Positions 2,582 to 10,909 of a stretch of 10,909 nucleotides of DNA are shown here, one piece after another. Made by a program: the position numbers and the translations under genes. Source of the DNA: a virus (Duplodnaviria > Heunggongvirae > Uroviricota > Caudoviricetes); the IMG/VR virus record IMGVR_UViG_2690316278_000007, one strand, 5' to 3'. The notes under the pieces are model-generated. The model was given only the letters and a program-made list of their open reading frames with translations, did no database searches and had not been told where the DNA came from. Numbering within the stretch: the first letter of the stretch is position 1; the number at the start of each line of letters is the position of its first letter.

Positions 2582-4783
2582 TCACGGCAACGGTTCAGGG
2601 TGTCCTGGGTGGCTTTGANNNNNNNNNNNNNNNNNNNNNNNNNNNNNNNNNNNNNNNNNNNNNNNNNNNNNNNNNNNNNNNNNNNNNNNNNNNNNNNNNN
2701 NNNNNNNNNNNNNNNNNNNNNNNNNNNNNNNNNNNNNNNNNNNNNNNNNNNNNNNNNNNNNNNNNNNNNNNNNNNNNNNNNNNNNNNNNNNNNNNNNNNN
2801 NNNNNNNNNNNNNNNNNNNNNNNNNNNNNNNNNNNNNNNNNNNNNNNNNNNNNNNNNNNNNNNNNNNNNNNNNNNNNNNNNNNNNNNNNNNNNNNNNNNN
2901 NNNNNNNNNNNNNNNNNNNNNNNNNNNNNNNNNNNNNNNNNNNNNNNNNNNNNNNNNNNNNNNNNNNNNNNNNNNNNNNNNNNNNNNNNNNNNNNNNNNN
3001 NNNNNNNNNNNNNNNNNNNNNNNNNNNNNNNNNNNNNNNNNNNNNNNNNNNNNNNNNNNNNNNNNNNNNNNNNNNNNNNNNNNNNNNNNNNNNNNNNNNN
3101 NNNNNNNNNNNNNNNNNNNNNNNNNNNNNNNNNNNNNNNNNNNNNNNNNNNNNNNNNNNNNNNNNNNNNNNNNNNNNNNNNNNNNNNNNNNNNNNNNNNN
3201 NNNNNNNNNNNNNNNNNNNNNNNNNNNNNNNNNNNNNNNNNNNNNNNNNNNNNNNNNNNNNNNNNNNNNNNNNNNNNNNNNNNNNNNNNNNNNNNNNNNN
3301 NNNNNNNNNNNNNNNNNNNNNNNNNNNNNNNNNNNNNNNNNNNNNNNNNNNNNNNNNNNNNNNNNNNNNNNNNNNNNNNNNNNNNNNNNNNNNNNNNNNN
3401 NNNNNNNNNNNNNNNNNNNNNNNNNNNNNNNNNNNNNNNNNNNNNNNNNNNNNNNNNNNNNNCCCCGAAAATGGTTTTCATGTATTCGGCCTGCTGGGCA
3501 GTACCGAGCCGGTTTTTCTCAAAGCTGGCCTGCATTTCTTTCAGAATGGTAAATACTGGTCGGGTGTTTCCCTTACTGTCTGAGGTTTTCACGCCAAGCT
3601 CTTTGAGTGCATCCCATGCTTTTCCAGTCGGTGCCTGCAGGCGACTTAACACGGCACGGCTTCCCGTCCCCGCCATTGAGCCTGTGATTTTTGCATCATG
3701 CAGCGCCCCGACCATTGCGGCGGTTTCTTCAATGCTGACACCGGCATTTTTTGCCACTGGTGCGGCATAGGTCAGCGCATCGCTCATGCCGTCAAAATCA
3801 GCGGCGGTTTTGTTCATCGTCATGGAGAGAACATCCCCGATATGAGCGACCTTATCGTTTGAAAGCTGAAAGGCGGATTTCATCCCCATCAGCAGGGCGG
3901 CGTTTTCTTCCATTGTGCGGCGGTTCGCCAGCGCCATATTCAGCGTGACCGGCGTTGCCGCCTGAATGGCATCAACATCCCCACCCGCTTTCGCAATGAT
4001 AATCTGTGCACCGGCCGCATCATCCGCTGAGGCGGCGGTGTTGTCACCGAGCTGGCGCGCCTGCTTGCGGAGTGCAGCCATTTCGGCGGAGTCTTTTGCC
4101 ACACCGAGCACAGCCTGCAATTCTGAGTTTTTCTGCGCAAACTCATAACCTGGCATCAGCAGCTTAACTCCGGCTATCGTTCCCGCAGCAGCAATCCCCA
4201 CACCGGCAGCGCCCACTGAGGCCATATTTCCGGCCAGTTCCTTTCCGGCCTGATAACGCTGTTTGACTGCGTTAAGTTTTGCCTGTTGCGCACTGACACG
4301 CGCCAGCGCGTCACGCTGCCGGTTAAGCTGGGCGGTGGTTTCACTGATACGGTTTTTCAGTCCCTGCTCATCATGTGCAAGATTGCGGGTATTAATTCCC
4401 ACAGCGGCCAGTTCCCGCTGCTGGCGTTTAACGGAATCTGTCAGGCGGTTATATTTCGCCTGTAAGTCCTCCGCCGCACGCTTTGCGGATTCCAGCACTT
4501 TCGCCTGAGCACGGGTCGGGCGTTCGGTGTTTTTAAACTGTGTGGCAAGGGCTTCGGCCTCCTGCCGTGCCTTTTCAAGTGCATGACCAGTCACGGCGAG
4601 CTGTGCACTGGTCTTGCGGAATCCCTCAATACGGGATGCGTGACCGTTCAGCTCGCGCAGTGATTTTTGTGTTTCCCGGATATCCCCCGACAGCAACTTA
4701 CTCGCTCTGCGGATGGATTTAAACGGGCGGGACGCCTGGTCAACAGCCCTGAGCAATACCTGTAATTTTACATTGTTACTCAT
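2582..4783 (-). CDS. T: Tail tape measure protein (gpT); only 3463-4783 (N-terminal ~440 aa) is readable, and the 3' end is hidden in the N-runs
   Basis: Minus-strand ORF starting ATG 4783-4781 (MSNNVKLQVLLRAVDQASRPFKSIRRASKLL...). It is long, Ala/Gln/Arg-rich and predicted helical, and follows E/E' as in P2. The start overlaps the E' stop (ATGAGTAA). The left coordinate is taken from the ORF track and is not a real gene end. Confidence 0.8.
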   Translation of the reverse strand: MSNNVKLQVLLRAVDQASRPFKSIRRASKLLSGDIRETQKSLRELNGHASRIEGFRKTSAQLAVTGHALEKARQEAEALATQFKNTERPTRAQAKVLESAKRAAEDLQAKYNRLTDSVKRQQRELAAVGINTRNLAHDEQGLKNRISETTAQLNRQRDALARVSAQQAKLNAVKQRYQAGKELAGNMASVGAAGVGIAAAGTIAGVKLLMPGYEFAQKNSELQAVLGVAKDSAEMAALRKQARQLGDNTAASADDAAGAQIIIAKAGGDVDAIQAATPVTLNMALANRRTMEENAALLMGMKSAFQLSNDKVAHIGDVLSMTMNKTAADFDGMSDALTYAAPVAKNAGVSIEETAAMVGALHDAKITGSMAGTGSRAVLSRLQAPTGKAWDALKELGVKTSDSKGNTRPVFTILKEMQASFEKNRLGTAQQAEYMKTIFGXXXXXXXXXXXXXXXXXXXXXXXXXXXXXXXXXXXXXXXXXXXXXXXXXXXXXXXXXXXXXXXXXXXXXXXXXXXXXXXXXXXXXXXXXXXXXXXXXXXXXXXXXXXXXXXXXXXXXXXXXXXXXXXXXXXXXXXXXXXXXXXXXXXXXXXXXXXXXXXXXXXXXXXXXXXXXXXXXXXXXXXXXXXXXXXXXXXXXXXXXXXXXXXXXXXXXXXXXXXXXXXXXXXXXXXXXXXXXXXXXXXXXXXXXXXXXXXXXXXXXXXXXXXXXXXXXXXXXXXXXXQSHPGHPEPLP
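2619..3462. other. Run of 844 N inside the tape measure gene
   Basis: Read directly from the sequence. Confidence 1.
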
Positions 4784-5790: not shown

Positions 5791-6981
5791 TTAATTGCTG
5801 TTAACCGAGGTGACCAGATTTGCCAGGTATTTATCGGTAATACGCTGGCGCAGGGTCAGGTTTTCAAGAGGAGGCACCGGGGTATAGTCGTAGTCGATAT
5901 ACAGTTTTCCGGCCTTGAGGGTTTCCGCATCGTTGGATTCTTCGCTGAACCAGCAGGTCGCATCCACGATATAGCCGTTTGTTTTCAGCTCACGGAATTT
6001 GGCATTGATGCCGTCAACGATGTCGCGAATCAGCGTTGCGGTGATGGGCTTGTCCACCGCCCACATGTGCGCCTCAGCCATCGTGTCGGCCAGCACCTGC
6101 GCGGTGCGGGTGTAGTTTTCAAAGAGGAACAGCGGGTCATCAGAGCAGGTACGGTTACCCCAGAAGCGGAAACCGTCACGGCGAATCAGCGTTGTGACGC
6201 CTGACTCGTTAAGCAGGTCAGCATCGGTGCCGGACTCCTGCAAATCCCAGAATACGGACGCGCTGATGCCGGTAACACCGTTCACCCCGACGTTGGACAG
6301 CGTTTTATGCCAGCCCTGCTCCTGGTCGATTTTAGCGCGCAGACCCAGCGCACGGGCGGTGGCATACGCGGTGGCGGTGGTACTGGCGACCGTATCCCAT
6401 GCGAGGAAATCCGGCCAGATGACCATCAGCTCACGCTGGCTGAAATTCTGACGGTAGGCTTTCACCTCGGAAACGGTCTTACAGCCCCATGCGCTGATAT
6501 ACCCGAAAGCGCGCAGCTTCTGACAGACTGATGCCAGTGCAACAGCCACCTCTTTGGTGTCCAGTCCCGGCACGCCGAGAATACGCGGTTTAACACCGGT
6601 TACCGACTCCGCCGCCAGCAGGGCTTTCAGTCCGGTGTACTGACCGTTTTCGTCGGTGGTGCCGATGATATTGGAAACGGTCTGCGCGAGTTTCGTTTCC
6701 TCGTCGTCGCCGGTGCCGTCTTCCACACGCACGACAACGGTGACCGGTTTTGACTGGTCGGCGATGGCCTGCAACGATGCCGCCAGCGTGCCTTTTTTAC
6801 CGGCCTTTGCAATTGCGCTCTGCACATTGGTAATCAGCACCGGTTTATTGAGGGGGAAGGTTTCCGCATCCGCATCGCTGGCCGTGCAGACCATGCCGAC
6901 AATGGCAGTGGATACGGTGGAAATGACGCGGGTGCCGTCGTTAATCTCCAGCACCTGCACGCCGTGATGATAGTCACTCAT
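5791..6981 (-). CDS. FI: Tail sheath protein gpFI (396 aa)
   Basis: Minus-strand ORF MSDYHHGVQVLEINDGTRVISTVSTAIVGMV..., first gene of the FI-FII-E-T-U-D operon. GGAG lies about 10 nt upstream of the ATG at 6981. Confidence 0.92.
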   Translation of the reverse strand: MSDYHHGVQVLEINDGTRVISTVSTAIVGMVCTASDADAETFPLNKPVLITNVQSAIAKAGKKGTLAASLQAIADQSKPVTVVVRVEDGTGDDEETKLAQTVSNIIGTTDENGQYTGLKALLAAESVTGVKPRILGVPGLDTKEVAVALASVCQKLRAFGYISAWGCKTVSEVKAYRQNFSQRELMVIWPDFLAWDTVASTTATAYATARALGLRAKIDQEQGWHKTLSNVGVNGVTGISASVFWDLQESGTDADLLNESGVTTLIRRDGFRFWGNRTCSDDPLFLFENYTRTAQVLADTMAEAHMWAVDKPITATLIRDIVDGINAKFRELKTNGYIVDATCWFSEESNDAETLKAGKLYIDYDYTPVPPLENLTLRQRITDKYLANLVTSVNSN

Positions 6982-7073
6982 CCGTTTAACTCCGTGGTTA
7001 ATGGGTGCAACTATTTTCTGTTGGGCAGTGCATGAGACGCTATTTGACCTGGCTGGTCAGTGGATGAAACAAC

Positions 7074-7105
7074 AGATAAAGAAAATGCGGGCAATTCGCC
7101 CGCAT
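7074..7105 (-). terminator. Candidate intrinsic terminator acting on leftward (minus-strand) transcription just upstream of the FI promoter
   Basis: Perfect 8-bp GC-rich stem ATGCGGGC (7085-7092) / GCCCGCAT (7098-7105) with a 5-nt loop. On the minus-strand transcript it is followed directly by UUUUCUUUAU (7084-7074). No comparable U-tract follows on the plus strand. Confidence 0.45.
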
Positions 7106-7122
7106 GTCCTGATTTGTACACA
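7105..7122 (-). promoter_or_regulatory. Candidate Ogr-dependent late promoter element (TGT-N12-ACA dyad) for the FI operon
   Basis: TGT (7105-7107), 12 nt, ACA (7120-7122), about 130 nt upstream of the FI start. P2/P4 late promoters are known to carry a TGT-N12-ACA dyad centred near -55. A chance occurrence is not excluded. Confidence 0.4.
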
Positions 7123-7320
7123 CTCATTTTCCGACTGACAGTTTACATAGCCCAAACGCTATCAAATCTGACAGCCTGCTATGAGCGAAAAGCGTTAAAT
7201 CTCACGATATCTGCTACCGGGAAAAATTTCGATTATCTTCGATGGGAACTTTGATAATGTAGTAAATGCCATTTTCAGCGATCACTTTTCAAGCGTGTGT
7301 AAATGATTAATGTTAAAAAA

Positions 7321-7350
7321 TTGACTTCACTGAAATAAGGTTGCTAGTAT
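7321..7350 (+). promoter_or_regulatory. Candidate sigma70 promoter for the cargo ORF (extended -10 type)
   Basis: TTGACT (7321-7326), 18-nt spacer, then TGcTAGTAT with TG at 7342-7343 and the hexamer at 7345-7350. An A/T-rich tract lies upstream (7300-7320). AAGGA Shine-Dalgarno (7381-7385) sits 6 nt before the ATG at 7392. Confidence 0.5.
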
Positions 7351-7391
7351 TTTTGGAGCAACCATTAATGTTTTTTATTTAAGGAATGTAA

Positions 7392-8810
7392 ATGACATAC
7401 GCACTGATTGATAATTCAACTCTAACTGCAGTCCAAAGAATCGAGGGGAAAGTAAAAACAAGATCGAAGGACTCAGTAGATACAGACATAATAGCATTTG
7501 AGAACTATATACAGTCTATTTTGTTCTATGATCACGTTATCGCGGTTGATGATTATATTCCAGAGTACCGTGGGAGTAGGATTTCAAGTTTCAGAGAGAT
7601 ATTATTTCTTGATAAAGCACAATATGGGTTGGATGAAATTGAAAGTGAAGCAAAAAAAATATCTGATGCATTGAAACCTAAAATTCGTGGTGGAACATTT
7701 GTTAATGACGATTTTAAAAAACTAATTGAACTTCTTCAGACACATATCATATGTACATGGGACATTAGTTCAAGTGTTTATCATCTAACACTGAAGAACT
7801 TATCTGATGGAGGTAAGGAGTTTGAAAAATATGGTAACATTGCTGCTGCCATTTTTTCAGAACTGCGTGATGCTGCTGAGTCTGGTAATAGAACAAATGG
7901 CGATGTTGAACTTCTCGATCGATTTGGCAACCCTATTCGCAAGGGGTACAAAGTTCCCGGAGCAAAATGGGGGGATGGCACATCTGCTGGTGAAGCATCA
8001 GATGCAATCAAAGCATTCGTGGCTTCGCTTGTATGGCTGGCTAATCGGGCAGTATTTTATTCTCTCACAGCTAAGTACCTTCAAGCAGATACTTTTTTAT
8101 ATCCATTACGTCAGGCGTATCAACAGACATATTTAAGCCAAAACTGTCAGTATGGTTTTGACTATGCTAAACATATTGTAGAAAACTTTTCCACTTCGTT
8201 AAGTCATGATCTCATTGATATTCATTCTGGTGGTAAAGCTGTAGCAACAGCAACTTCGCTTCCTTTATTTTCGGCATGGCTCGCAAAAGAAACTGGTGAT
8301 CCAAGTTGTATTGTTGAAGCTGCTTATAACATAAGGGACAACAACGAATTTGTAAGGGCCCGTGAGAAAATGCGAGAAATAAAGCGCTTGTTTGATGAAA
8401 ATGAATTGCCTCAAGCTAATAAGTCAGTAAGAGCATTGCTTACTGAAGTATCGAAAGAATCAGATTATATTCGAACTAAGTATGGGCTCAAGACTAGACA
8501 AGGTGTACCTGTAACTAAGCTTGTACATGTATACAATACTGTTGCGGCTATTAATTCCCTTCCGAAACTACCGACCTTTAATTTTAAAGTTAAAGTTCCT
8601 GATTTCTTATATGATCTTAAAAAACCCAAGGGGTTTCGTGCTCTCTATCGAAATTTGACTAATGATCTTTCTACTGTGTGGTCGTTAGGAGAAGCTCGAG
8701 ATATTCTTGGAAGTAAAGTTGTGATAGATAATCATGCAAGAATTTACAGTCCGAAGCATGAAGAACCGCGTTTCAAAAACTCTCATTCCCCATATAAGAG
8801 CCCGATGTAG
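7392..8810 (+). CDS. Hypothetical 472-aa protein of unknown function; AT-rich cargo gene in the G-FI (P2 Z/fun-type) slot
   Basis: Uninterrupted 1419-nt ORF, ATG 7392 to TAG 8808-8810, on the strand opposite to all flanking phage genes, with its own promoter and SD. G+C is about 35-38% in the two 60-nt lines I counted, against about 60% in a sampled FI line. No Walker A, no obvious HEPN Rx4-6H, no clear PD-(D/E)xK motif and no evident transmembrane segment. Confidence 0.85.
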   Translation: MTYALIDNSTLTAVQRIEGKVKTRSKDSVDTDIIAFENYIQSILFYDHVIAVDDYIPEYRGSRISSFREILFLDKAQYGLDEIESEAKKISDALKPKIRGGTFVNDDFKKLIELLQTHIICTWDISSSVYHLTLKNLSDGGKEFEKYGNIAAAIFSELRDAAESGNRTNGDVELLDRFGNPIRKGYKVPGAKWGDGTSAGEASDAIKAFVASLVWLANRAVFYSLTAKYLQADTFLYPLRQAYQQTYLSQNCQYGFDYAKHIVENFSTSLSHDLIDIHSGGKAVATATSLPLFSAWLAKETGDPSCIVEAAYNIRDNNEFVRAREKMREIKRLFDENELPQANKSVRALLTEVSKESDYIRTKYGLKTRQGVPVTKLVHVYNTVAAINSLPKLPTFNFKVKVPDFLYDLKKPKGFRALYRNLTNDLSTVWSLGEARDILGSKVVIDNHARIYSPKHEEPRFKNSHSPYKSPM

Positions 8811-8812
8811 CT

Positions 8813-8843
8813 TAAGAAAAAGACACGCCCACCTTGTGCGTCT
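8813..8843 (-). terminator. Candidate terminator for the H-G late transcript (weak hairpin plus T-tract on the minus strand)
   Basis: On the minus strand, ACGC/GCGU pairing (8825-8841) is followed by UCUUUUUCUU (8823-8813), ending right at the cargo stop codon. The stem is imperfect. Confidence 0.35.
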
Positions 8844-8848
8844 ACTTC

Positions 8849-8890
8849 TGGCACAGAGCGGACTCTCAGATTAGGCTTTACTCTGTGCCA
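8849..8890. other. 10-bp perfect inverted repeat between the convergent cargo and G genes
   Basis: tGGCACAGAG (8849-8858) and CTCTGTGCCa (8881-8890) with a 22-nt spacer. Possibly a bidirectional terminator or structured element; no clean U-tract on the plus strand. Confidence 0.4.
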
Positions 8891-8924
8891 TAGATATGTA
8901 AGCTCACACCAGAGCTCATACAAC

Positions 8925-9452
8925 TTATTGCGGCATTTCCGGCCATTCAGGATTTGCAGGATCCACACGACTGACCAGAACACTGTAGCGTTCCCATGCC
9001 TCCAGTCGACTGCGCTCCTCATCTGTTGCCATATTCAGCCTGACAGCGCGCTCCAGCGGCAAAATCACGGATTCAGCATCTGCAAGAAGTCTGGCTTTCC
9101 GATTTTCTGCCTGCTGCTGCAATTCCTCTGCCGTATAAATTCGTTTAATCACTGTACAGTCCTTAAACATCCAGTTCCCTGAAATGTCCGCCCGTCGGTT
9201 AGCAGTAATATCCGGCACTTCAACAACACTTAATCCATCCGGTCTGATAGCTGTCACATCCTTTTCCACATAGCGGATAATATTATCTTTGTCGTACGCT
9301 ATTTTTATCGTGTCATCAGCAAAATACTTTTGTTCTTCGTACCAGTTCTTACCATCTTCTGAAAAAAACCAGACAACATCAAAGTCCTTTGTCAATTGAT
9401 ATTGTTCAACCGTTTTTGGATTACCTGCCGTTATATTTATCAAATGCTGCAT
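8925..9452 (-). CDS. G: Tail fibre assembly protein gpG (175 aa)
   Basis: Minus-strand [47 protein letters not shown]... lying directly downstream of H (H stop TAA, 3-nt spacer, G ATG), the arrangement typical of P2. Confidence 0.88.
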
Positions 9453-9455
9453 AAA

Positions 9456-10909
9456 TTATACCTGTGCCACGTTATACCAAGTCCCGTTAATGTATTTCTG
9501 CACCGGTCTGTAATATACGCCACCAATGTTATCGGCAGAGTTTGAGCCGGTATCCTGAACAATAATGCCGGAATATACACACCCGGACGGTGCCTGATGT
9601 GTCCATGTCATACCATTGTTCGCAGGTTTGTATGTGGCAGCACCACCAAGCCGGATATCCCGGACATAGCGTGAATCAAAGTTGCCATAGTTAGATGGTG
9701 ATACCTGCCCGTTAACAGCAAAAGTGATGCTGTTATCTGTATTTCTCTGACTGTAAAAATGCCAGCCTGCATCATCACCTAATTCAGCCACCACAGGACG
9801 ACTTGAGTTTCCCCACAAATTGAATGCGGCTTCCTTCGTGGATGTATTGCTGCTGCTGACCGTGAACTTTTTCCCGCTACCGGCACGTACTTTGGTACTT
9901 GAGACAATATCACCTGTAACACTCAGGCCATGCCCCATTGACACTCCGCCATTGGCGTTATTGATAGTCAGCGGTCTTAAGCCGTTCCATGTCCCAAATT
10001 TATCGCCAGAGGCCGTCAGCATTAAATATGTGCTGCCGCCATCATTCCTGATAAAGAATCCATAATTGCCATAAGCAATGCGCAGACCATTAGCACTGAG
10101 TGATGTAATTTCACCTCTTGAACGGAGACCATAAGCGGAGCTGAGTGATAATTCTTCCTGAGCGTCATTGTTTCCTGTCGCCCAGCGAATTACCCCGCCC
10201 TGAACTGTTTCATGCCAGATAGTATCTCCTTCTCCACCACGAAACTTTCTGAGATATTTTTTGCCGCCTCTGGTGCCTGAACATAAGGCCGTAGACATAT
10301 AGGCATTCTGGCTTCCGCCATCCTGATTAATCGTTCCGGTCATTGAGTCGCCCTGACGATTCCAGTCACGACGCCAGCCGGGGGAGTAGCCGTCCCCATG
10401 ATTTATGTAAGTGAATTGCGCGCTGGTTGTACCGCCACCGCTTGATGTTGTTGGCGTGGTCACTCGGATAGTGATTGCAGATTTAGTTCCCATGACCTCG
10501 ACGACACAACCAGCCAGGTGGATATCACCACATCCGGTATCCGTAATGATTTTGTTATTTGCATATGACCAGGAGCCTTTGCACATCCAGTACGGATGAT
10601 TAAATGCACCACGGGAATCCAGCCATTCAATAAACTGAGCGGTTGTCCAGTTTCCGGCTTCAGTGCTCAAAGCGCCGCTATAAGCACGACAGGCACCGAT
10701 ATTTTTCGTGAAGGTATCCTTTCCCGGAATATCCGCACCGTTCTGATCTTTCTGAAGACGTTTTTCAGCATTGTCATAGGCAGACTTCACTGCTTTTGGC
10801 GTTGCGGCCAGCGTTTCAGAATCGCTGTTGATGGCACTACTTAGCTGGACAAGACCTTTTCGCGCTGTGGTGGCATCCTGTGCAGTGTATTTCCCGTTAG
10901 CAAGGTCAT
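9456..10909 (-). CDS. H: Tail fibre protein gpH, 5'-truncated by the window edge (C-terminal ~484 codons present)
   Basis: The frame stays open from the window edge (codon at 10907-10905) to the TAA at 9458-9456. The edge-proximal translation DLANGKYTAQDATTARKGLVQLSSAINSDSETLAATPKAVK... looks like P2-type H. The M at 10790 in the ORF track is an internal GTG, not the start. Confidence 0.85.
   Translation of the reverse strand, partial: DLANGKYTAQDATTARKGLVQLSSAINSDSETLAATPKAVKSAYDNAEKRLQKDQNGADIPGKDTFTKNIGACRAYSGALSTEAGNWTTAQFIEWLDSRGAFNHPYWMCKGSWSYANNKIITDTGCGDIHLAGCVVEVMGTKSAITIRVTTPTTSSGGGTTSAQFTYINHGDGYSPGWRRDWNRQGDSMTGTINQDGGSQNAYMSTALCSGTRGGKKYLRKFRGGEGDTIWHETVQGGVIRWATGNNDAQEELSLSSAYGLRSRGEITSLSANGLRIAYGNYGFFIRNDGGSTYLMLTASGDKFGTWNGLRPLTINNANGGVSMGHGLSVTGDIVSSTKVRAGSGKKFTVSSSNTSTKEAAFNLWGNSSRPVVAELGDDAGWHFYSQRNTDNSITFAVNGQVSPSNYGNFDSRYVRDIRLGGAATYKPANNGMTWTHQAPSGCVYSGIIVQDTGSNSADNIGGVYYRPVQKYINGTWYNVAQV

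Follow-up and report, generated by a model that had tools for sequence, protein, structure and literature searches.

The closest described arrangements to the locus studied here are those of phages 186 and P2. In 186 (GenBank U32222 annotation), the homolog of the tail-fibre assembly gene G ends at position 14054 and is followed by the terminator t45 (14058-14081), a B-protein site at 14091-14110 (GTTGTGCCAGACATCATCCA), the promoter pJ (start at 14159) and the sheath gene (14183). In P2 (GenBank AF063097 annotation), the activator site is placed at 17555-17583, the start of the F operon at 17626-17628 and the FI start codon at 17652, and a “putative rho-independent terminator for V operon” is annotated at 15639-15666. 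The published consensus for the activator site is TGT-N12-ACA, as quoted in PMC3931495. The interval between G and FI is known as a hotspot for cargo genes, called Z/fun or the Z-region (PMC13586616; PMC3091744). In the Z-region of P2-EC67 (AJ512685), the block on the FI side is annotated as “right inverted repeat” and the matching block after G as “left inverted repeat”.

The window, by which we mean the whole stretch of 10,909 nucleotides that was analysed, covers the tail region of an E. coli prophage of the P2-like type (Peduovirus). Its genes are located on the minus strand in the order H, G, FI, FII, E, T, U, D and ogr; between G and FI lies a divergent cargo gene for a protein of 472 amino acids (Table 1). 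Positions 6940-7194 are 94-97% identical to many P2-like phages, and the homology ends at about 7190-7194, where the variable cargo starts. Runs of N, representing masked sequence, are present at 938-1035, 2083-2581 and 2619-3462, and none of them touches the region of the hairpin and the FI promoter, pF. The apparently “split” D gene (923-1615 and 355-672) is a masking artefact and not biology, as is the match of the T protein to P2 T over residues 1-440 only, and the open reading frame of 168 amino acids at 2079-2585 is an artefact of the N runs.

To compare the region upstream of FI, we used 80 FI loci from IMG/VR and 80 from GTDB genomes (one genome per species), together with P2, Wphi and the window. 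The set, which ranges from Escherichia to Serratia, Dickeya and Rahnella, was reduced to 149 distinct FI-upstream sequences of 160 nt, and all counts over these 149 sequences are phylogenetically non-independent.

Table 1. Positions of genes and of observed or predicted regulatory features in the window.
Feature	Position	Strand	Basis or remark
ogr, late activator, Ogr/Delta zinc finger	55-336 (maximal ORF coordinates)	-	
FI, tail-sheath gene, first of the F operon	5791-6981	-	99% identity to P2-like FI
FI ribosome-binding site GGAG	6993-6990	-	
F-operon start CAC, placed by alignment	7005-7007	-	P2 17626-17628, 186 14159
Putative pF -10 region GAAAATA	7012-7018	-	Alignment and conservation
Conserved pF -35-region element AAATAGC	7039-7045	-	T 96%, G 99%, C 97% conserved
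Putative pF activator (Ogr) box GTTGTTTCATCCACTGACCA, GTTGT-N12-CCA	7054-7073, centre 7062.5	-	Alignment to P2 and 186 sites
Predicted terminator, U-run TTTCTTTATC	7075-7084	-	Ends 2 nt before the Ogr box
Predicted terminator, stem-loop	7085-7105; arms 7105-7098 and 7092-7085, loop 7097-7093	-	Counterpart of 186 t45
TGT-N12-ACA, apparent chance match in cargo-bordering block, outside pF	7105-7122	.	
Conserved non-coding block, equivalent of the “right inverted repeat”	7106-7196	.	AJ512685 annotation
Cargo gene, 472 aa, in the Z/fun hotspot, divergent from FI	7392-8810	+	PHROG 13435
Possible weak terminator after G, imperfect hairpin and TTTTTCTT	8825-8856	-	Abuts the 3' end of the cargo
G, tail-fibre assembly gene, last of the V operon	8925-9452	-	
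H	9456-10790	-	

The minus strand at 7105-7085 reads ATGCGGGC-GAATT-GCCCGCAT and continues into TTTCTTTATC. The stem consists of 8 bp, six of which are G-C, or of nine pairs when the G-T closing pair is counted. It folds with -17.4 kcal/mol, as compared to -7.5 ± 2.1 kcal/mol in dinucleotide shuffles (z -4.6), and one of 200 shuffles was as good. The sequence thus contains a G+C-rich stem-loop with a U-run directly 3' of it on the transcribed strand. A hairpin with a T-run that ends 95-130 nt before the FI start codon is present in 104 of the 149 distinct sequences, while 20 dinucleotide shuffles gave counts of 2-9 and three control positions gave 0, 0 and 16. The hairpin is conserved across Enterobacterales at this pF-proximal place, where the 149 sequences contain 65 distinct versions of it; in distant genera the stems there are unrelated, and examples of unrelated stems are AACGGGC.., GAGCCCTCC.., GCCCCGAAAGGGGC and AGCCCGGC.. 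In the 46 distinct hairpins that could be aligned, 93.8% of the cells are paired and four of the eight pairs have changed on both sides (19 cells), a level of covariation that was reached by none of 500 shuffles. When the alignment is slid by 1-3 columns, only 36-57% of the cells pair. The hairpin in the window has one compensatory change of its own, a T-A pair where most relatives have G-C, and the pairing at 7105-7085 has been maintained in evolution. The GC-rich hairpin of 8 bp with a U-rich tract on the minus strand, which had been described in the earlier note, is accordingly present, stable and covarying. We interpret it as a conserved, predicted intrinsic (Rho-independent) terminator just upstream of pF and infer that it terminates transcription in this prophage.

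The occurrence of the hairpin differs with the gene located upstream of pF. Where a G-like (tail-fibre assembly) gene ends nearby, the hairpin is present in 38 of 39 sequences and starts 2-6 nt past the stop codon; that is, in relatives without cargo it is placed directly 3' of G. It is found in 6/7 sequences in which another gene on the same strand ends nearby, and in 40/57 in which cargo on the same strand ends further upstream. With divergent cargo, which is the layout of the window, the hairpin is present in 18 cases and missing in nine (18/27), and it is absent from all 17 relatives with a gene for a serine recombinase (DNA invertase) whose open reading frame extends through the pF box. 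The hairpin is thus dispensable in some contexts, as the missing copies in the divergent-cargo and invertase relatives and the degenerate copy in P2 indicate. In the window, no minus-strand gene ends near the hairpin, and the closest gene in its direction, G, ends 1.8 kb upstream, beyond the divergent cargo. Taken together, the counts show the pattern of a terminator that closes the V operon, with cargo apparently inserted ahead of it and past the G stop codon.

In the 17 invertase loci, the serine-recombinase gene (Resolvase and HTH_7 domains) is co-directional with FI and is located 40-700 nt upstream of it. The open reading frames run through the Ogr box of pF and stop at the conserved AAATAG of the -35 region, so that coding sequence overlaps the late-promoter elements.

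The sequence GTTGTTTCATCCACTGACCA aligns to both of the annotated activator sites, in P2 and in 186, and the hairpin of the window aligns to t45. The box is placed on the FI side of the hairpin, 2 nt past the U-run, and its centre lies at about -56 from the start given by the alignment, as in P2 and 186. With its form TGT-N12-CCA, the box matches five of the six defined positions of TGT-N12-ACA; pF of P2 and pJ of 186 deviate from the consensus in the identical manner. The pattern TGT-N12-[AC]CA, starting 87-92 nt before the FI start codon, is present in 128 of the 149 distinct sequences, in 124 as CCA and in four as ACA. The box positions outside the search pattern (G-2, T-1, C15 and C19) are 86-97% conserved, while the spacer positions are 41-83% conserved. 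Conserved flanks around a variable spacer are the signature of a protein-binding dyad, here GTTG-N14-CAAC. On the basis of this homology, we infer that Ogr binds at 7073-7054 in this prophage and that transcription starts at 7005-7007. The alignment to the P2 and 186 annotations thereby supports the earlier suggestion of a compact node before FI, with a minus-strand terminator immediately preceding an Ogr-dependent promoter for the FI operon. The box pattern has two matches in the window, against 0.34 expected. The second GTTGT-N12-CCA is located at 652-671 on the plus strand, inside the coding region of D and on the opposite strand from it, has no promoter context and is probably due to chance.

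In the mechanism that we propose, the hairpin at 7105-7085 and its U-run would act as a Rho-independent terminator on the minus (FI-sense) strand, and would be the one that follows G at the end of the V-W-J-I-H-G late operon in the P2/186-type phages. In this prophage, the cargo module would have entered after the G stop codon and before the terminator, and this insertion would have left the terminator 1.8 kb away from G, on the FI-proximal border of the hotspot. There, it would stop minus-strand transcription from the V operon or the cargo region just before pF, and the F operon (FI, FII, E, T, U and D) would then be transcribed from pF only, in dependence on Ogr bound at 7073-7054. The promoter would comprise this box, AAATAGC at 7045-7039, GAAAATA at 7018-7012 and a start near 7006, followed by the FI start codon at 6981. 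Judging from the sequence comparisons, we consider it highly probable that this explanation is correct as a whole, including the V-operon terminator before pF, the Ogr box at 7073-7054 and the lack of a role for the dyad at 7105-7122 that is discussed below.

The earlier note had also proposed that the terminator insulates the cargo from antisense read-through. This part of the model does not hold, since leftward transcription would meet the hairpin only after it has passed the whole cargo; the hairpin cannot shield the cargo and would protect the F operon instead. A hairpin at the G-proximal edge could spare the cargo from antisense transcription, and the window has only a weak candidate at that edge, at 8856-8825. 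This imperfect hairpin has a z of only -1.3 and was not called by a scan for the terminator consensus, and its position is that of the annotated V-operon terminator beside fun(Z) in P2. It may be that this weaker terminator already stops most of the V-operon transcripts, leaving the hairpin at 7105-7085 with little to do here. A perfect inverted repeat of 10 bp is also located directly past the G stop codon, at 8849-8858 and 8881-8890 (TGGCACAGAG / CTCTGTGCCA, with a loop of 22 nt). It is conserved in P2 and does not represent a canonical terminator because it lacks a U-run.

The cargo gene had no match in Pfam, PADLOC or NCBIfam, and the search against PHROGs gave only family 13435, of unknown function. 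The gene is rare, being present in seven of 5426 complete E. coli genomes, and is a candidate for an uncharacterised lysogenic-conversion or defence gene. A sigma-70-like site with a TG, TTGACT-18-TAGTAT, is located near it at 7321-7350. The conserved non-coding blocks on the two sides of the cargo, at about 7106-7196 and about 8830-8924, form an imperfect inverted repeat. In the longest such repeat around the cargo, 7165-7192 pairs with 8845-8872 at 75% complementarity, and within the window the similarity between the flanks is weak (21/28 nt, with 12 of 1000 shuffles as good). The block at 7106-7196 has no open reading frame and is more than 90% conserved among relatives that carry unrelated cargo in either orientation. 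A stretch of the flanking sequence, TATGTAAAC, may resemble a half-site of the crossover sites of Gin/Hin-type invertases.

The earlier note had placed the Ogr site at TGTCCTGATTTGTACACA (7105-7122), centred near -55. For this to be correct, the hairpin would have to be located between the activator site and the core promoter, and transcription would have to start near 7058. In favour of this placing, the dyad agrees fully with the published TGT-N12-ACA (as given in PMC3931495) and is located upstream of FI, and ogr is present within the window. The dyad also shares T7105 with the hairpin, as had been pointed out, but the letters occur no more often than by chance: the window contains two matches where 2.4 ± 1.6 are expected, two or more were found in 135 of 200 shuffles, and the other copy is located inside the cargo open reading frame. 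Since the number of matches is that of chance, the abutment of the dyad with the hairpin has no statistical weight. Moreover, the annotated sites and starts of P2 and 186 align elsewhere and put the box at 7073-7054, so that the centre of the dyad, 7113.5, lies at about -107 and not near -55, as judged by homology and not by direct mapping. The form TGT..ACA is present at this position in only 7 of the 149 distinct relatives, all from the E. coli clade, with cargo of differing sizes and none with the cargo gene of the window. The commonest form is TGA..ACA, as in Wphi, and P2, where pF was characterised, has TGA..GCA. In the relatives without cargo, the position is occupied by coding sequence of G. 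Furthermore, neither AAATAGC nor GAAAAT is present at the required distance from the dyad on either strand; the positions where these core elements would be needed are occupied by the hairpin (7096-7090) and by TTTCATC (7069-7063). In a minority of the E. coli P2-like prophages, a single change from A to T makes the perfect TGT-N12-ACA; they account for 8 of 40 distinct sequences with the block, the window included. We therefore consider it very unlikely that Ogr acts on pF from the dyad at -55, and regard the dyad as a chance match on the wrong side of the hairpin, with no predicted role in pF. According to a deletion analysis of pF from 1990, the sequences upstream of about -69 are reportedly dispensable, a result that would rule out both the hairpin and the dyad at 7105-7122 from the promoter. 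There is likewise very little probability that the perfect TGT-N12-ACA represents a second functional target of Ogr/Delta, which either aids pF from about -107 or drives plus-strand transcription toward the cargo, the latter being conceivable because the motif is symmetric. If so, expression of the activator by a P2-type phage or a P4 satellite would turn on the cargo.

The hairpin might instead be an inherited relic with no present job, which is kept because recombination preserves the conserved flank. With a divergent cargo and a weaker terminator after G, essentially no minus-strand transcription would be expected at 7105, and 7105-8783 contains no minus-strand open reading frame of at least 50 amino acids except for antisense ones inside the cargo. 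P2, with the same divergent layout, has the degenerate copy, and the nine divergent-cargo relatives without the hairpin point in the same direction. However, the other 18 of these 27 have kept it, the copy in the window is perfect, and its compensatory T-A for G-C argues for continued selection on pairing. Read-through past the hairpin after G is also plausible, given that its z is only -1.3. We consider a relic improbable for these reasons. Still more improbable, to the point of being negligible, is that the block at 7106-7196 and the hairpin together encode a minus-strand small RNA of about 110 nt, with the dyad in its body and the terminator as its end. The strong conservation of a block that has no open reading frame, is combined with unrelated cargo and ends at a strong terminator would be in line with such an RNA. 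However, a scan of the whole window against Rfam with E-values up to 1 gave only a spurious match to a eukaryotic IRES and none near 7074-7196, and no sigma-70-like promoter site was found on the minus strand at 7100-7400. Outside the terminator, the hairpins that RNAalifold predicted from 40 distinct block sequences were all tiny, and the covariation term of -0.38 gave them no support. The block is better explained as a conserved arm, or inverted repeat, flanking the hotspot. The reading in which the hairpin is the V-operon terminator and the Ogr box is located at 7073-7054 is the one that we retain.

The node upstream of FI is thus real and ordinary; it is nothing new in kind and implies no new mechanism. 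The annotation of 186 already shows a terminator, an activator box, a promoter and the sheath gene in this layout, and that of P2 shows the box and the start. The analysis provides a correction for annotation, in that the Ogr box of P2-like tail-sheath genes is the TGT-N12-CCA immediately downstream of the terminator and not the nearest perfect TGT-N12-ACA. Because the cargo is inserted past the G stop codon but before the terminator, the hairpin together with GTTGT-N12-CCA marks the FI-proximal edge of the Z/fun hotspot across Enterobacterales, and this landmark may be of use in delimiting accessory or defence cargo.

In the t45/B site/pJ region of 186 and in the window alike, a tail-fibre assembly gene is followed by a terminator hairpin and, about 10 nt later, by GTTGT-N12-CCA, in the same order and with matching spacing. 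The start is located about 57 nt from the box centre, the sheath gene follows after another 24 nt, and the sequences align directly. The two differ in that t45 is located 3 nt past the G homolog, while the window has a cargo module of 1.8 kb in between, and in that the hairpin of the window is much stronger than t45 (-17.4 versus -6.8 kcal/mol).

The promoter pF of P2 precedes the same gene and shares the TGT-N12-CCA box, AAATAGC and GAAAAT with the window, and the 5' UTR and the ribosome-binding site are identical. However, the box spacer and the -35/-10 interval of the window are of the Wphi-type variant and not of the P2 type. The pF-proximal hairpin of P2 also differs from that of the window, with a mismatch and a wobble pair, -10.8 kcal/mol and a z of -0.35. 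In the P2 locus (coordinates of L003), this degenerate hairpin (3020-3050) is accompanied by a separate, strong, annotated terminator (1140-1167) beside the 3' end of fun(Z), which suggests that the G-proximal edge of the cargo has taken over the role of terminator in P2. This V-operon terminator of P2, facing the 3' end of the convergent fun(Z), has the same proposed job of ending the V-operon transcripts. It is not homologous to the hairpin at 7105-7085, however, and is placed at the G-proximal edge of the cargo, where its counterpart in the window is possibly the hairpin at 8856-8825.

As in the known Z/fun hotspot, the cargo of the window is located between G and FI and has the same conserved flanks, with the dyad at 7105-7122 in the right block. 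What sets the window apart is the cargo gene itself, uncharacterised and rare among the E. coli genomes.
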